Part shown: piece by piece, positions 4,044 through 53,924 of the stretch | Layout of the letters: each line of letters begins with the position of its first letter | Position numbering within the stretch: the stretch's first letter is position 1 | NCBI GenBank assembly: GCA_041653835.1 | Contig: JBAZEP010000001.1 | Location: 19,082-83,081 of the forward strand | Length of the DNA stretch: 64,000 nucleotides | Direction: 5' to 3' | From: Candidatus Omnitrophota bacterium | GTDB taxonomy: Bacteria; Omnitrophota; Gorgyraeia; Gorgyraeales; Gorgyraeaceae | Program-made: the position numbers and the translations under genes | The notes under the pieces: generated by a model | What the model was told of the DNA's origin: nothing | What the model saw: the letters and a program-made list of their open reading frames with translations, nothing else | Databases searched by the model: none

Positions 4044-7000
4044 TTAACGTTCAAAGACCACCCAGATTTTCTTTTCGGAAAGGACCTTGCTTCCTTCCAG
4101 CACCTGGCCCGTCACTATGATCCTGTAGCAATCCGAATGCACCGTGACAAGGTTCGATATCTGCTTGAACCTGTTCTTTTTATCAGCGTCATTGGAGCCT
4201 AACGCGTGCGTGGAAATAAGGTCGCCTATGCCTAAATTAAGGCCGTTCTTATTGCCGAACACCCTGTTATTGATGATATTATCCGCCGCGGCGTCATCTA
4301 TGCCAGGCAGCGAGTTTAGAACATTTTTGGAGGCTGTATTCACGTTTATCCTGCCGTATAAATTATTAACGGGATCCAGCCTTATGAAATCGAAATGCGC
4401 CGCGCCTGTCTCGGACGCGTTCCTTACCTTTATTTCCAGGACATTTTCCGGAGTGGAAACAGCGCTGCCGGTGCCTATCTCTACATTCCCGAATGTTATC
4501 CCGTTATCGGGCCCGGGCGTGAGAGCGGGGGTAAAATCAGTCCACGTCTCATCCGCGAGGCGCATCGATACGGCTACAGCCTCGCCCTCTTCACCGAATA
4601 TTTTCAGCCTGTAATGCCCGTTTTCCAAACCGTCCCCGGCATCCCACTTCCATGTACCTGTGGAATCTTTTTTTCCGCTTTCGCACCGGTCCGTAAAAGG
4701 CTCGGCCCTCTGGACCACCTTCCATCCGCCTTCGGAACCTTCGACAAGATTGTTTTCCGCTTCCAGCCTGGCCCCGAACACCGTAAGCCTGTCCGCTATC
4801 TTGGCGATATCCTCCAGTGATAACATTTTCCATGGCTCCATCCCGAGCGATATAAAAGCGATCTCGCCGATCGACGAAAAATTCTTATTCTTTACGCTGG
4901 TCTCGGTATCATAGTGCTCGATGATCTCCTCGCCTATCTTTTCTTTCATCCCGTCATTGTTGTTGGCAAGCCCGGGCGTACCTCCTTTTTTAGCCAGGCA
5001 GGCGTACCAGTTATCCGGTATGCCGTTACTATTCGAATCTACGGCGTAAGCCGGATCTGATTTTTCCAGCGCTTTATAATCCGCCACATTGCCTGAGAAA
5101 TATTCCTGCTTGTCCACTATATGGCCCATGGGGTCTTTGAGGGTTATAAAATTCCCTCCCATGAAAGAGCTGTCGCCCAATAGATCAGAGCCCGGGGAAA
5201 CAGCTCTTAAAAAATGCAGCGCCGCGGATTTTTCTTTGCCCCATATTGAAACAAACGATATGCCGTTACCGTTTATGCCTCCCTGCGTATCATCCTTATC
5301 CACACAAAGAACAAGATGTTCATGCGGCCCTATGACTGTCCCGAGAGGGACGGTCGCGGGCCAGCCTTCCTTGCTCGGGCCCTCTACGGTCCACCCGTCA
5401 ATAGAAACCTCTTTCGGCGTCAGGTTTATCAACTCTATATATTCCGCGTCGGGCGCCTGGCTGAGTTCTATGGCCCTGAAATATGTAGAGCCCGTCTCCC
5501 TGTTATTCTGTATCCTTACCGTAAGCTTTCCGCTCGAAACAACCGCCGCTTTCCCGCCCCCGAACAAATCCCCGTCCATGACATTGGAAGAACGGCTGCC
5601 CCCTATCTCCACATCGCCTATTTCCTGGCCGCCTGAACCGCTGAACAATTTTATGTAATATTTTCCATCGGGCAGGTCCTTCCATGTCCATTCGCCTTCC
5701 CCTGTCTTGCCGCCTCCATGCTCATCGTTCTGATAGAATCCGTTCTGCCATACCCAATCCCCGCCCGGGTCCTGGCCGCTAAAAACACTCCTGGAAATAG
5801 CCGGCCTTATCATTACCTCATTTATCCTTATACCTTCCACGCCCCTTATTTCAGCCACGCTGAAATTCTGCTGGCCCATCCTGGGATATAATTCGAGATA
5901 GGAAAAATAGGACGGGTTCCCGGAACTGTTCTTGACGGAGAGGTTCAATATCTTGTTTTCGAACGAAATAGTCCCTATCCTCAATATCTCGCCGTGCCTT
6001 ACTGAATTCTGGGTCATGCCGTTTACGGTAATGTCGCCTACTGCCTCATCTTTGACACCGAACACACCTATATAGTATTCGCCTTCCGGCAGGTTGACCC
6101 AGGTAATGGCATAAGGCTGGCCGTCTTTCACATCGCTTTGATAACAACTGCCTTTCCAGAGCCAATCGCCTACCGGACCCCTGTTCACGGCAGCGAGCCT
6201 GTTATATAATTTAGGTATCAGGCTCTGGCTGAAATCGCTGTCGCAGGCGTCTATTATGTTTACCGCTTTCTGGAAAGGGTCGCTCACGCCCGCGTCCTGA
6301 AGCAATATGGCGAGCGCCTGGCTGTCCATCGAATTTATATTATTTTTCAACCTGCCTTCCACGTCCAGATTTTTGTCGAGCGAATAAGTAGTTATATAAG
6401 CGTATATTTTCGTCAAATCCTCCCTGGAGATGGATTTTATCTTGCTTATCTCAAAAGGCGTTTCAAACGCCCTGTCATCGCCATAAAGATCCAGAGGGTT
6501 ATATTCCAGGGGCTCGTCTATACCCTCGCCCGCCTCGTCCACTATGCCGTCCGAATTATTATCTATGCCGTCGGAATCTAGTATCCGCTGGTTCCGGTTA
6601 TCATCCACATCCGCCTCGCCCGGCTGGCCGTCAGGCCCATACCTGAAACCAACGATATCTTCATAAATAACTTCGGGTTCTTTTAACCCAAGGGAGGCTA
6701 TAAACTCTTTCAAGTCCAATTCATGAGGCATCCATCCTTCCGTGACCTTCAGGGGAGAAAGATTATGCTTATAAGCGAGGTTTATGTCCAGGAAAGCGGT
6801 CTCATCCTTGACTAAAACAGCGTATCTGCCCGTAACCTCGCCTTCCTCATCGTACACGTTCAGCCATTTCGAATCAGCGGTGCCATCGCCGTCATTATCG
6901 ACATCGCTTCCGGCAAAAACCGTATGCCATTTGTCCTCAAAACTGTCTATATCCCTGCCATCTTCTTTCAGGACCTGCCGGGCATATGTAACGCCTGCCT

Positions 7001-17905: not shown

Positions 17906-17957
17906 CTCCTCCGAATTTTACGCGCTAAAATTTTACAACTCCAACAAGAAATAAGTA

Positions 17958-26096: not shown

Positions 26097-26169
26097 CCTC
26101 CGAATTTTGTGAAACAAAATTCGTCCCGAGTCCGCCCCGCCACCAAAGATGGCGGTCGAGACGAGGGAC
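26097..26169 (-). ncRNA. Structured 5' leader element copy 1: P1 GUCCC/GGGAC enclosing a CGCCA/UGGCG hairpin, then an AU-rich hairpin, then SD GGAGG and the moxR ATG
   Basis: Minus strand reads GTCCCTCGTCTCGACCGCCATCTTTGGTGGCGGGGCGGACTCGGGACGAATTTTGTTTCACAAAATTCGGAGGtaaatATG. Two further copies, with compensatory stem substitutions, are at 53859-53924 and 43683-43757. Confidence 0.6.
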
Positions 26170-43682: not shown

Positions 43683-43757
43683 CCTGCCCTCTCAAATTTT
43701 ACGAAGTAAAATTTGATCCCGAGCGATCATATCCATTCCTATCGAGCCGCGAGGGAC
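43683..43757 (-). ncRNA. Structured 5' leader element copy 3 (upstream of the EamA-like gene)
   Basis: Minus strand reads GGTCCCTCGCGGCTCGATAGGAATGGATATGATCGCTCGGGATCAAATTTTACTTCGTAAAATTTGAGAGGGCAGGATG. It has the same P1 (GUCCC/GGGAU) and UC/UC internal loop as copies 1 and 2. P1b is GCG/CGC where copy 1 has GUC/GAC. The AU hairpin has two compensated changes relative to copy 1. Confidence 0.55.
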
Positions 43758-43832
43758 CTCCTACTTCAAGTTTAAATATAAGATAACATATCTAATTTGC
43801 AAATGGAATAAAATAATAAACTCGTATATAAT

Positions 43833-44720
43833 ATGATTATGTTCAAAGCGGGCAGGGTAGCCATAATCGGAAGGCCGAATGTAGGGAAGTCCACACTTCT
43901 TAATGTGCTTGTCAGGGAAAAGGTCTGCATCGTATCGGACAAGCCCGAGACCACGCGCGACAATATCCAGGGAATAATATCCGGCGAAGATTTCCAGATC
44001 GTGCTTGTCGATACCCCGGGCATGCACCGGCCCAAAAACCTCCTTGGAAAATTGATGGTACGCAAGGCGCAGGCCTCTGTCATGGAAACGGATCTGAACC
44101 TCATCCTTATAGATGCCGCGAGCGGCATCACAAAAGAGGACATAGAGATATTCGGGCTCATGCCGGGAAAATCCAATATCCTTATCATAAATAAGATAGA
44201 CAAGATTGACAGGCGCCGCCTGCTCCCTCTTATCGAAAAAGCCGTAAAATTCAATTTCAAGGAAATCATACCTGTCTCCGCGATCAAAAAAGACGGGACA
44301 GATATAGTATTCAATAAAATACTGGAATACCTGCCTGAAGGCTATGCCTTATTCCCGGAAGACCAGTTGAGTGATAAAAGCGAAAGATTTATCGTGCAGG
44401 AGATAATACGGGAAAAGACCCTAGAAACCACATACCAGGAAGTACCTCATTCCGTAGCTGTCACCGTAGAGGAGATGAAAGAAAAAAAAGACAGGGACAA
44501 TAACGACATAGTCTATATAAGGGCTAATATATATTGTGAAAAGGACAGCCAAAAAAGCATCATTATCGGCAAGGATGGCAAGATGCTCAAAAGAATAGGC
44601 GAGACTTCGCGAAAAGATATAGAGAATTTCCTGCGGAAAAAGGTTTTCCTCGACCTGTGGGTCAAGGTCTATGAGAACTGGCGCAAGGATCCTTTTGCCC
44701 TGAAAAATCTGGGCTATTGA
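43833..44720 (+). CDS. era: GTPase Era
   Basis: G1 GRPNVGKST, G3 DTPG, G4 NKID and a C-terminal KH domain. Start may instead be the ATG at 43839. Confidence 0.92.
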   Translation: MIMFKAGRVAIIGRPNVGKSTLLNVLVREKVCIVSDKPETTRDNIQGIISGEDFQIVLVDTPGMHRPKNLLGKLMVRKAQASVMETDLNLILIDAASGITKEDIEIFGLMPGKSNILIINKIDKIDRRRLLPLIEKAVKFNFKEIIPVSAIKKDGTDIVFNKILEYLPEGYALFPEDQLSDKSERFIVQEIIREKTLETTYQEVPHSVAVTVEEMKEKKDRDNNDIVYIRANIYCEKDSQKSIIIGKDGKMLKRIGETSRKDIENFLRKKVFLDLWVKVYENWRKDPFALKNLGY

Positions 44721-52541: not shown

Positions 52542-53753
52542 TCAGATACGCCCGAAACTGGCAAGTAAATTAGCAAGAGGCTCGTTCTTTTTGAAGCCTT
52601 CGGTCTTCCATGACCCTATTATGGCGTTTTTATGCCCTTTCCAGAGAGTATAAAAATTCTCAAAACCGTAAACAGGCCCCTGGCGGCTGATCCATGGCGG
52701 ATTTGCCGTATATTGGTATATGCCGTCCGGAAATACGCTGTTGGAGACTGCCTTATATGTCCAATATGTCCAATGAAATCCGAACTCCTTAAAGCATTCC
52801 AGCGTATCCCTGACCCATTCGAGCTCACCGGAGCATTTTCCGCATCTCGAGTTCACTCCGAACTCGCCCGCGAAAACCGGCACATTCCATTTCTTGGAAT
52901 AACCGTGGTATGTTCCAAGTATCTCTTTTATTTTTTTAAAATTCCATGTTTCGCCGTTAATCCTGCCCGGGTAGCTGAGGTCCCTGTGAAAATTAAAAGT
53001 AAACTCCAAGGGATGATAAAAATGGATGCTGTAAGAAAGATTATCCGCGAACGGCTCGCCTATGTCTTCCAGGCGTTGTGACCATATATTGCCTTCCAGG
53101 AATATGATGTGCCCGCTATCCACCGCCCTTATCCGTTTTACAGCCTCTTTATAGAACGGCCTCAGTATTCCAGCGCCGCCTTTTTTTATGACAGGCTCAT
53201 TCAATATATTGTAACCCGCAACACCCTCTTCGCCTTTAAAATTCTCCGCCAACTCTTCCCATAACCTGTAATAACGTTCGCGGCATTTTTTATCTTTCCA
53301 TAAGGACATTTCGCCGTCGCTGTCCGCGTGCCAATCCTGGTTCTGCGAGCCAGGCGCGGCGTGCATGTCCAGGATACAGTAAATATCACGTTTCTTGCAC
53401 CATGAAACAGCTTTTTTCAAGAGGCCGATGCCGTTCTTATTTATAGAATGATTTTTGTCCTGATTCTCTATGAGTTTATGATTAAAGGGGAGGCGGACGC
53501 AGTTAAAACCAAGATTCGCTATATTTTTAAAATCCTCTTCTTTTATAAAATTATTCCTGAACTCTCTGGTAAAATTCTCCAGTTCTTTACCGCCCCAGCG
53601 CCTTGCCATCTCAGCTTTGAACGATTTCTCGGATATATTCCTGCCGTAAAGTATATACCCCTCCATCATAAGCCATCCGCCAAGGTTCACGCCGCGGAGA
53701 ATGATCTTTTTGCCCATAGAATCTATTATGGCGCTATCTTTTGTCTTTAACAT
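52542..53753 (-). CDS. Glycoside hydrolase family 5 (beta-glycanase/cellulase-like)
   Basis: The GH5 acid/base motif NILNEP is present, together with a second conserved glutamate region (FAGEFG) and GVNLGGWL near the N-terminus. Confidence 0.7.
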   Translation of the reverse strand: MLKTKDSAIIDSMGKKIILRGVNLGGWLMMEGYILYGRNISEKSFKAEMARRWGGKELENFTREFRNNFIKEEDFKNIANLGFNCVRLPFNHKLIENQDKNHSINKNGIGLLKKAVSWCKKRDIYCILDMHAAPGSQNQDWHADSDGEMSLWKDKKCRERYYRLWEELAENFKGEEGVAGYNILNEPVIKKGGAGILRPFYKEAVKRIRAVDSGHIIFLEGNIWSQRLEDIGEPFADNLSYSIHFYHPLEFTFNFHRDLSYPGRINGETWNFKKIKEILGTYHGYSKKWNVPVFAGEFGVNSRCGKCSGELEWVRDTLECFKEFGFHWTYWTYKAVSNSVFPDGIYQYTANPPWISRQGPVYGFENFYTLWKGHKNAIIGSWKTEGFKKNEPLANLLASFGRI

Positions 53754-53858: not shown

Positions 53859-53924
53859 CCTCCGAATTTTGTGGAACAAAATTCGTCCCGAGTCTCGCCA
53901 TCTACAGGTGGCGGAACGAGGGAC
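53859..53924 (-). ncRNA. Structured 5' leader element copy 2 (starts at the ogg stop codon, ends in the SD of the small ORF)
   Basis: Minus strand reads GTCCCTCGTTCCGCCACCTGTAGATGGCGAGACTCGGGACGAATTTTGTTCCACAAAATTCGGAGGctgtcATG. It is ~90% identical to copy 1 outside the loops. The P2 loop and the P3 loop (UCC vs UUC) differ. Confidence 0.6.

Follow-up and report, generated by a model that had tools for sequence, protein, structure and literature searches.

The window, a stretch of 64,000 nucleotides (nt) from a contig of a Candidatus Omnitrophota bacterium (JBAZEP010000001.1), carries three complete copies of a structured element of about 70 nt. They were located by reading the window directly, and all lie on the minus strand (Table 1). 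Copy 1 sits between an M48 peptidase gene upstream and moxR downstream, which is followed by a DUF58/VWA gene. Copy 2 is preceded by an Ogg gene and followed by an open reading frame (ORF) of 25 amino acids and then a GH5 gene. Copy 3 lies in front of an EamA gene, and its upstream neighbour is the divergently transcribed era GTPase gene. These Pfam assignments agree at all three copies with the gene identities given in a preliminary description of this DNA. The same description had each copy begin within 0 to 8 nt of the preceding stop codon. This holds for copies 1 and 2, which start 8 and 1 nt past the stop, but not for copy 3 with its divergent era.

Three copies of one structure

All copies follow the same plan. 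From 5′ to 3′ it consists of a helix P1 (GUCCC/GGGAC(U)), a 2×2 internal loop UC/UC, a closing G-C pair and a hairpin P1b/P2. After a linker of 0–1 nt comes an AU-rich hairpin P3 of 10–11 base pairs (bp) with a 3-nt loop, then the Shine-Dalgarno sequence (SD) (G)GAGG and, 4–5 nt on, ATG. In DNA letters the common plan is GTCCC-TC-G, a variable hairpin, C-TC-GGGA(C/T) and the AU-rich hairpin, where P3 takes the form CGAATTTTGT-TTC-ACAAAATTCG or CAAATTTTAC-TTC-GTAAAATTTG. We call the G+C-rich hairpin P1-P1b-P2 module A and the hairpin P3 module B.

The pattern GTCCCTCG-N15-45-CTCGGGA matches the window three times, compared to 0.00 expected from 100 shuffles, so that the three copies first described are indeed present. 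The covariance model introduced below scores copy 3 at 77.8 bits and the other two at 51.6 and 49.7 bits. Run with filters off, it finds no further full copy in the 64-kb window. Its sole extra match is a P3-only version in the leader of nrdJ, which also holds the AAAATTCGGAGG 12-mer beside P3, just as the preliminary description had it.

Predicted folding stability is significant for copy 1 only (z = −4.5; copies 2 and 3 have −1.3 and −0.05). Hence, support for the element comes from comparative data and not from folding energy. In their minimum-free-energy folds, copies 1 and 2 leave the SD unpaired.

Table 1. Positions of the element copies, their parts and associated features in the window.
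Feature	Position	Strand	Context
Copy 1, complete	26097–26169	−	Between M48 peptidase stop TAA (26180–26178) and moxR
Copy 1, P1 5′ strand	26169–26165	−	
Copy 1, UC (5′ side)	26164–26163	−	
Copy 1, P1b/P2	26162–26130	−	
Copy 1, UC (3′ side)	26129–26128	−	
Copy 1, P1 3′ strand	26127–26123	−	
Copy 1, P3	26123–26101	−	
Copy 1, SD GGAGG	26101–26097	−	
Copy 1, ATG	26091	−	
Copy 2, complete	53859–53924	−	1 nt past Ogg stop TGA (53928–53926)
Copy 2, P1-P2	53924–53886	−	
Copy 2, P3	53885–53863	−	
Copy 2, SD	53863–53859	−	
25-amino-acid ORF	53853–53776	−	Starts at ATG 53853; GH5 next at 53753
Copy 3, complete	43683–43757	−	5′ untranslated region of the EamA gene
Copy 3, P1-P2	43757–43717	−	
Copy 3, P3	43716–43692	−	
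Copy 3, GAGGG	43691–43687	−	
Copy 3, ATG	43682	−	
Promoter-like TTTGCA-17-TATATT	43775–43803	−	era/EamA divergent spacer; ends 18 nt before copy 3
era GTPase gene	43833–44720	+	Upstream of copy 3, divergent
P3-only version, nrdJ leader	17906–17939	−	AAUUUUA/UAAAAUU hairpin without P1/P2; 11 bits, E about 0.9
nrdJ leader, GGAGG	17912–17908	−	
nrdJ, ATG	17899	−	
Promoter-like TTGACA-16-TATACT	17981–17954	−	nrdJ; direct reading

Distribution across genomes

A pattern search and a covariance model, both suggested in the preliminary description, were used to follow the element beyond the window. We scanned one genome per species (596 Gb) with the exact pattern GTCCCTCG-N15-45-CTCGGGA-N1-3-AATTTT, for which about 25 chance matches were estimated. 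At least 112 contigs matched, nearly all of them from Candidatus Omnitrophota. Among the 80 matches listed, 73 belong to metagenome-assembled genomes (MAGs) of Candidatus Omnitrophota/Omnitrophica from more than 30 assemblies, four to “uncultured Planctomycetia” MAGs and three to others (Luteolibacter, Acidobacteriaceae, Zambryskibacteria), which we take as chance or doubtful matches. In the match on the Zambryskibacteria contig (L013:4775-4850; L-numbers label the compared loci), which is assigned to another phylum, P1 and P3 are good, P2 is poor and the SD is missing. Chance, mis-binning of the contig or horizontal transfer could explain it. On viral contigs the exact pattern has 0 matches.

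A covariance model with 19 base pairs finds 126 copies at E<1e-4 in the window and 784 kb of Omnitrophota loci, which were themselves ascertained by the element. As a control we searched 80 metagenomic MoxR loci (498 kb), to which no taxonomy was assigned and whose MoxR proteins are 60–73% identical to that of the window, except in L113. The element occurs in L113 and in no other of these loci. L113 is also the closest MoxR relative of the window (90% protein identity, 77% nucleotide identity over 3.5 kb). The moxR region of the window is syntenic with Omnitrophota MAGs at 71–78% nucleotide identity.

Rfam 15 at gathering thresholds gives 0 matches in the window, self-cleaving ribozymes included. 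The best sub-threshold match at copy 1 is TD-2, with 19 bits against a threshold of 48.7 (E=0.78). Literature searches turned up no description of the element, and those aimed at RNA motifs, hairpins or repeats of Omnitrophota or Omnitrophica yielded no paper on RNA elements of this phylum. The copies form a phylum-wide Candidatus Omnitrophota family of two-hairpin “dumbbell” elements of about 70 nt. No catalogued RNA family was found to match it. Dispersed, structured extragenic repeats that are transcribed together with genes are known as a general kind.

Covariation and conserved parts

In the alignment of the 126 copies, 98.0% of the cells are standard pairs (81% when shuffled) and 17 of the 19 pairs show changes on both sides. 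The covariation score is 0.409 compared to 0.113 for shuffled alignments, and 0 of 500 shuffles attain the observed score. These values come from an alignment that was itself fitted to the model. The copies in it depend on one another, and most of them were found with a pattern in which P1 and part of P3 are fixed. Once the partners are slid by 1–3 columns, the score is at most 0.05. The columns left free by the pattern are nevertheless strongly informative: P1b columns 9–12, the base of P3 and the apex of P3 each show three or four Watson-Crick pair types. Covariation in P1 is revealed by about 29 copies that were recovered by the model and not by the pattern. Beside GUCCC/GGGAC, P1 occurs as GCCCC/GGGGC, ACCCC/GGGGU, AUCCC/GGGAU, GUCCU/AGGAU and AUCCU/AGGAU, and the closing pair changes from G-C to A-U. 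The selected structure with compensatory changes that was first proposed from three copies is supported by this wider set.

The UC/UC internal loop is retained in 121 of the 126 copies, and the P3 core AAUUUU/AAAAUU is conserved. P2 ranges from 15 to 60 nt in length and falls into a few subfamilies, in which the loop sequence is kept (GAUGGUAAAAACCAUGG, UCCUAUUCGUC, CUAAACGUGAUAGCNGG, CCCGAUAAAUCGGG and GCCACCUUUGGUGGC are among them) and the stems covary. At the moxR site, compared in five genomes with 71–78% nucleotide identity (including L047, L066, L106 and L113), P1, UC/UC, P3 and the SD are kept, and P2 is entirely different in each.

Position and orientation

P3 is directly followed by (G)GAGG, and the start codon lies 7–13 nt past the end of P3. 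GGAGG-N(5-9)-ATG abuts the last base of the element in 90 copies. At tRNAs and one transfer-messenger RNA (tmRNA), the final base of P3 doubles as base +1 of the mature RNA (the offset of the P3 end from +1 is −1 in most cases). Sorted by what lies downstream, the 126 copies include 90 with a sense ORF, 16 with a sense tRNA and one with the sense tmRNA. For at least 8 the neighbour is a tRNA in antisense, which points its 3′ CCA end at the element. Hence, the element is not purely a translation leader, because it also abuts the 5′ ends of tRNAs and tmRNA and, in antisense, the 3′ ends of tRNAs.

A co-oriented ORF stop occurs within 40 nt upstream of 69 copies. In 55 of these, the distance from the stop codon to the element is −1 to 10 nt. 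Inside operons the element fills whole spacers (rpsL-rpsG, fusA-tuf and that between the genes of ribosomal proteins L2 and S19). Where no gene is close upstream, consensus sigma-70 sites end 11–18 nt 5′ of the element (locus L007 and copy 3 of the window; more were seen by eye), and predicted start sites lie 5–11 nt before the element in these cases of 5′ untranslated regions (UTRs). The promoter-like site in the era/EamA spacer would put copy 3 at about +11 of its transcript. A promoter scan found no minus-strand sigma-70-like site at copies 1 and 2.

Where both neighbouring genes run in the same direction, 94 copies are in sense and 9 in antisense orientation. Convergent genes enclose only 5 copies, and divergent genes 4. 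Overlap of copies with coding regions is unusable as evidence, since it is confounded by in-frame upstream extensions of the downstream ORF. Two claims of the preliminary description, that the element shares the orientation of the downstream gene and that it ends at the SD, are supported beyond the window.

By its position, the element is a 5′ UTR or an entire intercistronic spacer, neither promoter nor terminator. It would be very surprising if it ended or attenuated transcription of the upstream gene as an intrinsic signal, or acted as promoter of the downstream gene. Such a function could be read from the G+C-rich module A, which lies 0–10 nt past stop codons with UUUU a few bases later, and from downstream genes that would need strong transcription. 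However, a terminator scan calls none of the three window copies, and the U-run lies 5–6 nt past the stem and is itself paired in P3. L007 has a canonical terminator followed by the promoter TTGACA-17-TATATT, which ends 11 nt before the element, so that both signals are upstream of it. The sole −10-like hexamer of the element, TAAAAT, belongs to the 3′ arm of P3 and stops 3 nt short of tRNA +1, which is too close for transcription to start at the mature end, and consensus promoters lie upstream of the element. We also rejected the element as a terminator for antisense tRNAs: in those cases there is no U-tract on either strand.

Downstream genes

The Pfam search covered 87 downstream ORFs that start with ATG and have 40 codons or more. 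Recurrent families are MoxR (five times), lumazine synthase (RibH, four times), Hsp70 and ribosomal protein S16 (three times each). Ribosomal proteins S7 and L20, EF-Tu (a third copy is truncated), GroES, GAPDH, GlnA and chorismate synthase occur twice each, and GreA is present as well. Reading of N-termini adds ribosomal proteins S19, S21, L19, L31 and L7/L12 as well as RRF, HU, ACP, PII, NrdR and NrdJ. In total the downstream set spans 108 Pfam families plus the tRNAs and tmRNA.

The flanking genes belong to core operons, for example str, S10/spc and trmD-type. In locus L071 the element precedes rpsG and tuf, but not fusA. In an S10/spc operon (L081) a full copy lies between the genes of L2 and S19. 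Ribosomal-protein genes make up about 12 of the 90 downstream ORFs, and about 24 of the 126 copies are associated with tRNAs. Set against expected shares from general knowledge, both would be several-fold above those of a typical genome. In well-studied bacteria, tuf after fusA, rplS and rpsP in the trmD operon, rplL and rpsU must all out-produce their operon neighbours. Going by these examples, several of the marked genes are cistrons that out-produce their neighbours elsewhere.

A gene set centred on translation, chaperones and central metabolism could also point to an operator for a global RNA-binding regulator, or to a riboswitch or thermometer that switches a regulon. The conserved UC/UC loop and P3 core suggest a specific partner. 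We nevertheless consider this reading very unlikely. The element has no conserved multi-helix pocket, the length of P2 is free and the SD lies outside the helices. It also precedes tRNAs and tmRNA, which are untranslated, and the downstream genes differ too much to share one ligand. The thermosensor considered in the preliminary description is likewise unlikely, given an SD that no helix sequesters and a very diverse set of downstream genes. A switch in which the 5′ strand of P1 (CCUC) pairs with the SD was rejected too, since this helix would span just 4 bp and copies before tRNAs conserve the motif to the same degree.

As a side observation, the gene immediately downstream of copy 2 is a Cys-rich candidate ORF of 25 codons (MKVTIHYMLRPVAHCKEGCSTCSRA) that ends 22 nt before the GH5 start.

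Leader module or selfish repeat

To explain these observations, we propose a family of hairpins that resembles repetitive extragenic palindromic sequences (REPs) and that became fixed as an orientation-locked RNA module, which insulates and stabilises in leaders and between cistrons and in which the UC/UC loop is a protein recognition site. We think this proposal has about an even chance of being correct. The composite of modules A and B appears to be selected as a leader or intercistronic module because of the sense bias, the zero-spacing junctions upstream of genes and the retention at housekeeping genes at about 70–78% identity. Among the parts of the element, the almost invariant UC/UC loop is the likeliest site at which a conserved factor would bind.

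Under this proposal the element would be transcribed in the sense direction as the whole 5′ UTR or the whole intercistronic spacer. Module A presents its symmetric, almost invariant loop within covarying helices. Module B, a near-palindrome, reaches with its 3′ end to the GGAGG of the SD or, at tRNAs and tmRNA, to base +1. The role would be post-transcriptional, a form of “punctuation” or insulation, in which the spacer is folded closed and the SD is kept single-stranded. The downstream cistron would gain a structured 5′ end, either a primary one or one made by an endonucleolytic cut, and may then be expressed independently of its upstream neighbour, often more strongly. At the DNA level, the family would spread and be exchanged in the manner of REPs, which would explain the subfamilies and the nested, inverted and tandem copies described below. 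A co-opted REP-like element was among the options of the preliminary description, and it comes close to what the wider data suggest.

Alternatively, the element is a selfish DNA palindrome, similar to REPs or to miniature inverted-repeat transposable elements (MITEs). It would be mobilised or homogenised as DNA, for example by an HUH enzyme of the type of the REP-associated tyrosine transposases (RAYTs) or by gene conversion. Upstream of genes it would be tolerated for the SD that it carries or preserves, without a dedicated RNA function. We regard this as improbable, though far from negligible. Several observations weigh against our proposal, and some of them support this rival.

One of them comes from the window itself, where the three downstream genes are not obviously highly expressed. 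Moreover, the stems are near-perfect palindromes: the alignment contains 36 G·U/U·G pairs and 32 A·C/C·A pairs, and folding is equal in sense and antisense (62 vs 54, p=0.41; for P3 19 vs 25). Such strand symmetry is typical of DNA palindromes and unusual for old structures that exist only as RNA. As a test for structure at the RNA level it carries no information, and it mildly favours a palindrome at the DNA level. About 10% of the copies are antisense to their neighbours, mostly with P3 against the CCA end of a tRNA.

Other observations concern module A, which also occurs alone. In six loci (L033, L046, L067, L069, L097 and L108) P2 is replaced by an inverted module A, and the transcripts of these nests carry a UC/UC loop and then a GA/GA loop. 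Triple nests of module A occur in L060 and L078. Pairs of inverted module A without P3, 16 nt apart and similar to bacterial interspersed mosaic elements (BIMEs), are found in L081 (between ribosomal-protein genes L23-L2, L5-S14 and S14-S8) and L046; such inverted dimers are a minority of copies. Locus L011 holds an array of four tandem diverged copies directly before a tRNA gene (L011:4359-4686), with a tRNA-like remnant (GGCCCATAG...) in between. In the RNase P RNA of the same locus (L011:6164-6712; class A, 134 bits, 549 nt), about 100 nt stand in place of the P9 hairpin, among them a module-A hairpin that has the UC/UC loop (6306-6345, ATCCCTCG...CTCGGGAT).

The subfamilies of P2 are lineage-enriched, for example CUAAACGUGAUAG in CG02/CG12 MAGs. 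Related genomes carry different subfamilies at the orthologous moxR site. This argues for copying or replacement and not for slow compensatory drift. Module A is missing from the nrdJ leader of the window, whereas an nrdJ-like gene in L103 has the full element.

Against a purely selfish repeat stand the 94:9 sense orientation with only 5 convergent copies, the zero spacing to SD and tRNA +1, and retention at the same gene in species that are only 71–78% identical in nucleotides. The copies have no unpaired GTAG or CGTC tag, and their 5′ flank is A-rich. No match to an IS200-type transposase below E=0.8 was found in the compared loci with tblastn, a weak test with an approximate TnpA query. Several marks of a selfish repeat in the sense of the preliminary description are partly seen outside the window, where there are nested, inverted and tandem copies, the copy in RNase P RNA, lineage-specific subfamilies and strand-symmetric palindromes.

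Two types of mobile DNA were rejected. In a MITE the ends should be inverted repeats, but here they are GTCCC... and ...AAAATTTGG, and flanking duplications were not seen. Integron attC sites follow the consensus R′′/R′ boxes RYYYAAC...GTTRRRY and come after promoterless cassettes. The P1 arms are GTCCC/GGGAC and not AAC/GTT, and the flanks are core operons and not cassettes.

A few further arrangements were seen around the copies. In L081 (1230-1764 and 6331-6469; also L046:6418-6600) antisense and sense module-A hairpins flank TATAAAAT, and a CGAATTT/AATTCG helix encloses the arrangement. Before the S14 gene of L081, GAGGAGG is parted from the ATG by a perfect 12-bp hairpin, a “split” ribosome-binding site (RBS). 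An insert of 45–50 nt with an 11-bp terminal inverted repeat (CCCGCTCTTTT...AAAAGAGCGGG) occupies the apex of P3 in L073:5580-5705, L074:5246-5373 and L090 (3036-3173, 4789-4918 and 5104-5244), with remnants upstream of L005:2754 and L073:689. It is flanked by the 7-nt direct repeat GTTTCAC, which is the P3 apex itself. The insert looks like either a tiny MITE that targets the hairpin tip or a propagated extension of P3. At contig ends in L072 and L089, short tandem repeats (GGTCCTTTGCGTTT units and GTCCCTCGGCGCGTTCGCTTCGCTCAC units) adjoin copies of the element; they may be arrays of degenerate module-A halves.

Comparison with known systems

REPs and BIMEs are the closest comparison. Like them, the element is a short, imperfect, G+C-rich extragenic palindrome with an internal mismatch, and it is high-copy with subfamilies and inverted pairs. 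In size and number, too, it resembles a REP-type repeat, as module A is an imperfect hairpin of 35–70 nt with 3 copies per 64 kb in the window. A published study on REPs (PMC3733652) places them mainly downstream of coding regions, between unidirectional and convergent ORFs and often as inverted pairs. The same study takes an unpaired GTAG or CGTC tag at one end as the criterion for a REP, and states that REPs are transcribed in operons and can change segmental mRNA stability (PMC3733652). The Omnitrophota element, in contrast, starts with the paired GTCCC and no such tag, and no RAYT was seen in the loci, which is a weak test. About 90% of its copies are orientation-locked to the downstream gene, and it lies upstream of genes, 5′ UTRs included, instead of downstream. 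It continues into a second, AU-rich hairpin, which directly adjoins the SD or tRNA +1, and one sequence motif is kept across the whole phylum. For REPs, malE-malF is an example of an effect on segmental mRNA stability.

Correia elements (CREE) of Neisseria and other co-transcribed MITEs are dispersed, gene-adjacent hairpins, which are substrates of RNase III and alter the expression of neighbouring genes. The Omnitrophota element is a dispersed, gene-adjacent hairpin repeat as well. However, Correia elements are 100–155 bp long, have terminal inverted repeats and a TA target duplication, insert in either orientation and are genus-specific, and none of these features is seen here. Mycobacterial interspersed repetitive units (MIRUs) are intercistronic repeats oriented with the operon and have been proposed to affect the downstream cistron. 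They share position and orientation with our element, but they are tandem units of 40–100 bp with small ORFs that overlap the flanking stop and start codons, whereas the Omnitrophota unit is an untranslated structure of two hairpins that also occurs before tRNAs.

Phage T7 has intercistronic RNase III sites, hairpins with an internal loop between cistrons. These sites, 5′ stem-loops of the ompA type that stabilise mRNA, and the synthetic insulators RiboJ and Csy4 hairpin are likewise structured modules directly before an RBS that uncouple a cistron from its upstream context and have a hairpin beside an exposed SD. The likeness concerns a possible mode of working and not membership: there is no sequence or structural homology and no ribozyme core (no Rfam match).

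A dedicated RNA-processing signal is a further alternative, which we consider unlikely. The dumbbell would be the substrate of an endonuclease, with the cut at the base of P3, which would release upstream RNAs with a 3′ hairpin and set the 5′ ends of mRNAs, tRNAs and tmRNA. The enzyme could be RNase III acting on a rod of coaxially stacked P1-P3, or a hairpin nuclease similar to Cas6/Csy4. In a specific version, to which we give the same low credence, a conserved protein of the phylum would recognise the UC/UC hairpin and the palindromic P3 and cut or cap at the hairpin base, and the signal would be a domesticated repeat.

Boundaries are what makes processing attractive. The end of P3 coincides with +1 of tRNAs and tmRNA and with the first G of the SD, and whole operon spacers are filled. 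Where a copy is antisense, the opposite side of P3 overlaps the CCA end at offsets of 0 to −4, and in L105 the spacer after a tRNA starts at the terminal A of CCA. Processing best explains why P3 faces the tRNA in either orientation of the element, given that P3 reads almost alike on both strands. Because P3 is palindromic, an inverted element could also define tRNA 3′ ends.

However, RNase P RNA is present in three loci (L089, L053 and L011). No new enzyme is thus required to make the 5′ ends of tRNAs, and on the same grounds we rejected the idea that the element substitutes for RNase P. Tight boundaries may simply reflect compact genomes, and a cut at the base of P3 leaves an unprotected mRNA that starts at the SD. 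If the specific version with a conserved protein of the phylum is nevertheless true, bacteria would have an equivalent of tRNA punctuation in mitochondria or of Csy4-type processing, with cistron-specific expression inside operons.

Antisense copies with P3 over the CCA end were seen at tRNA genes in L044:3196-3406, L102:3683-4122, L042:3816-4144 and L037:3644-3778. The tRNA-Met of L044 lies between two copies, a sense one on its upstream side and an antisense one on its downstream side, and a tRNA-Cys-Leu-Val cluster shows the same arrangement in two species.

Implications

Omnitrophota are uncultivated, and to our knowledge nothing is known of how their gene expression is organised. In this phylum one structured module appears to mark about one gene in 20, among them those for EF-Tu, ribosomal proteins, chaperones, tRNAs and tmRNA, in dozens of species. 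It would be a phylum-level expression signal of a kind that has no Rfam entry. For annotation it offers a handle on true start codons and on the sub-structure of operons. Under our proposal, it is also a test case for how a selfish palindrome turns into a fixed cis-element, and it would be a compact natural part that combines an insulator with an RBS. If a dedicated factor that binds or cleaves the element exists, it would constitute a new RNA-processing system.

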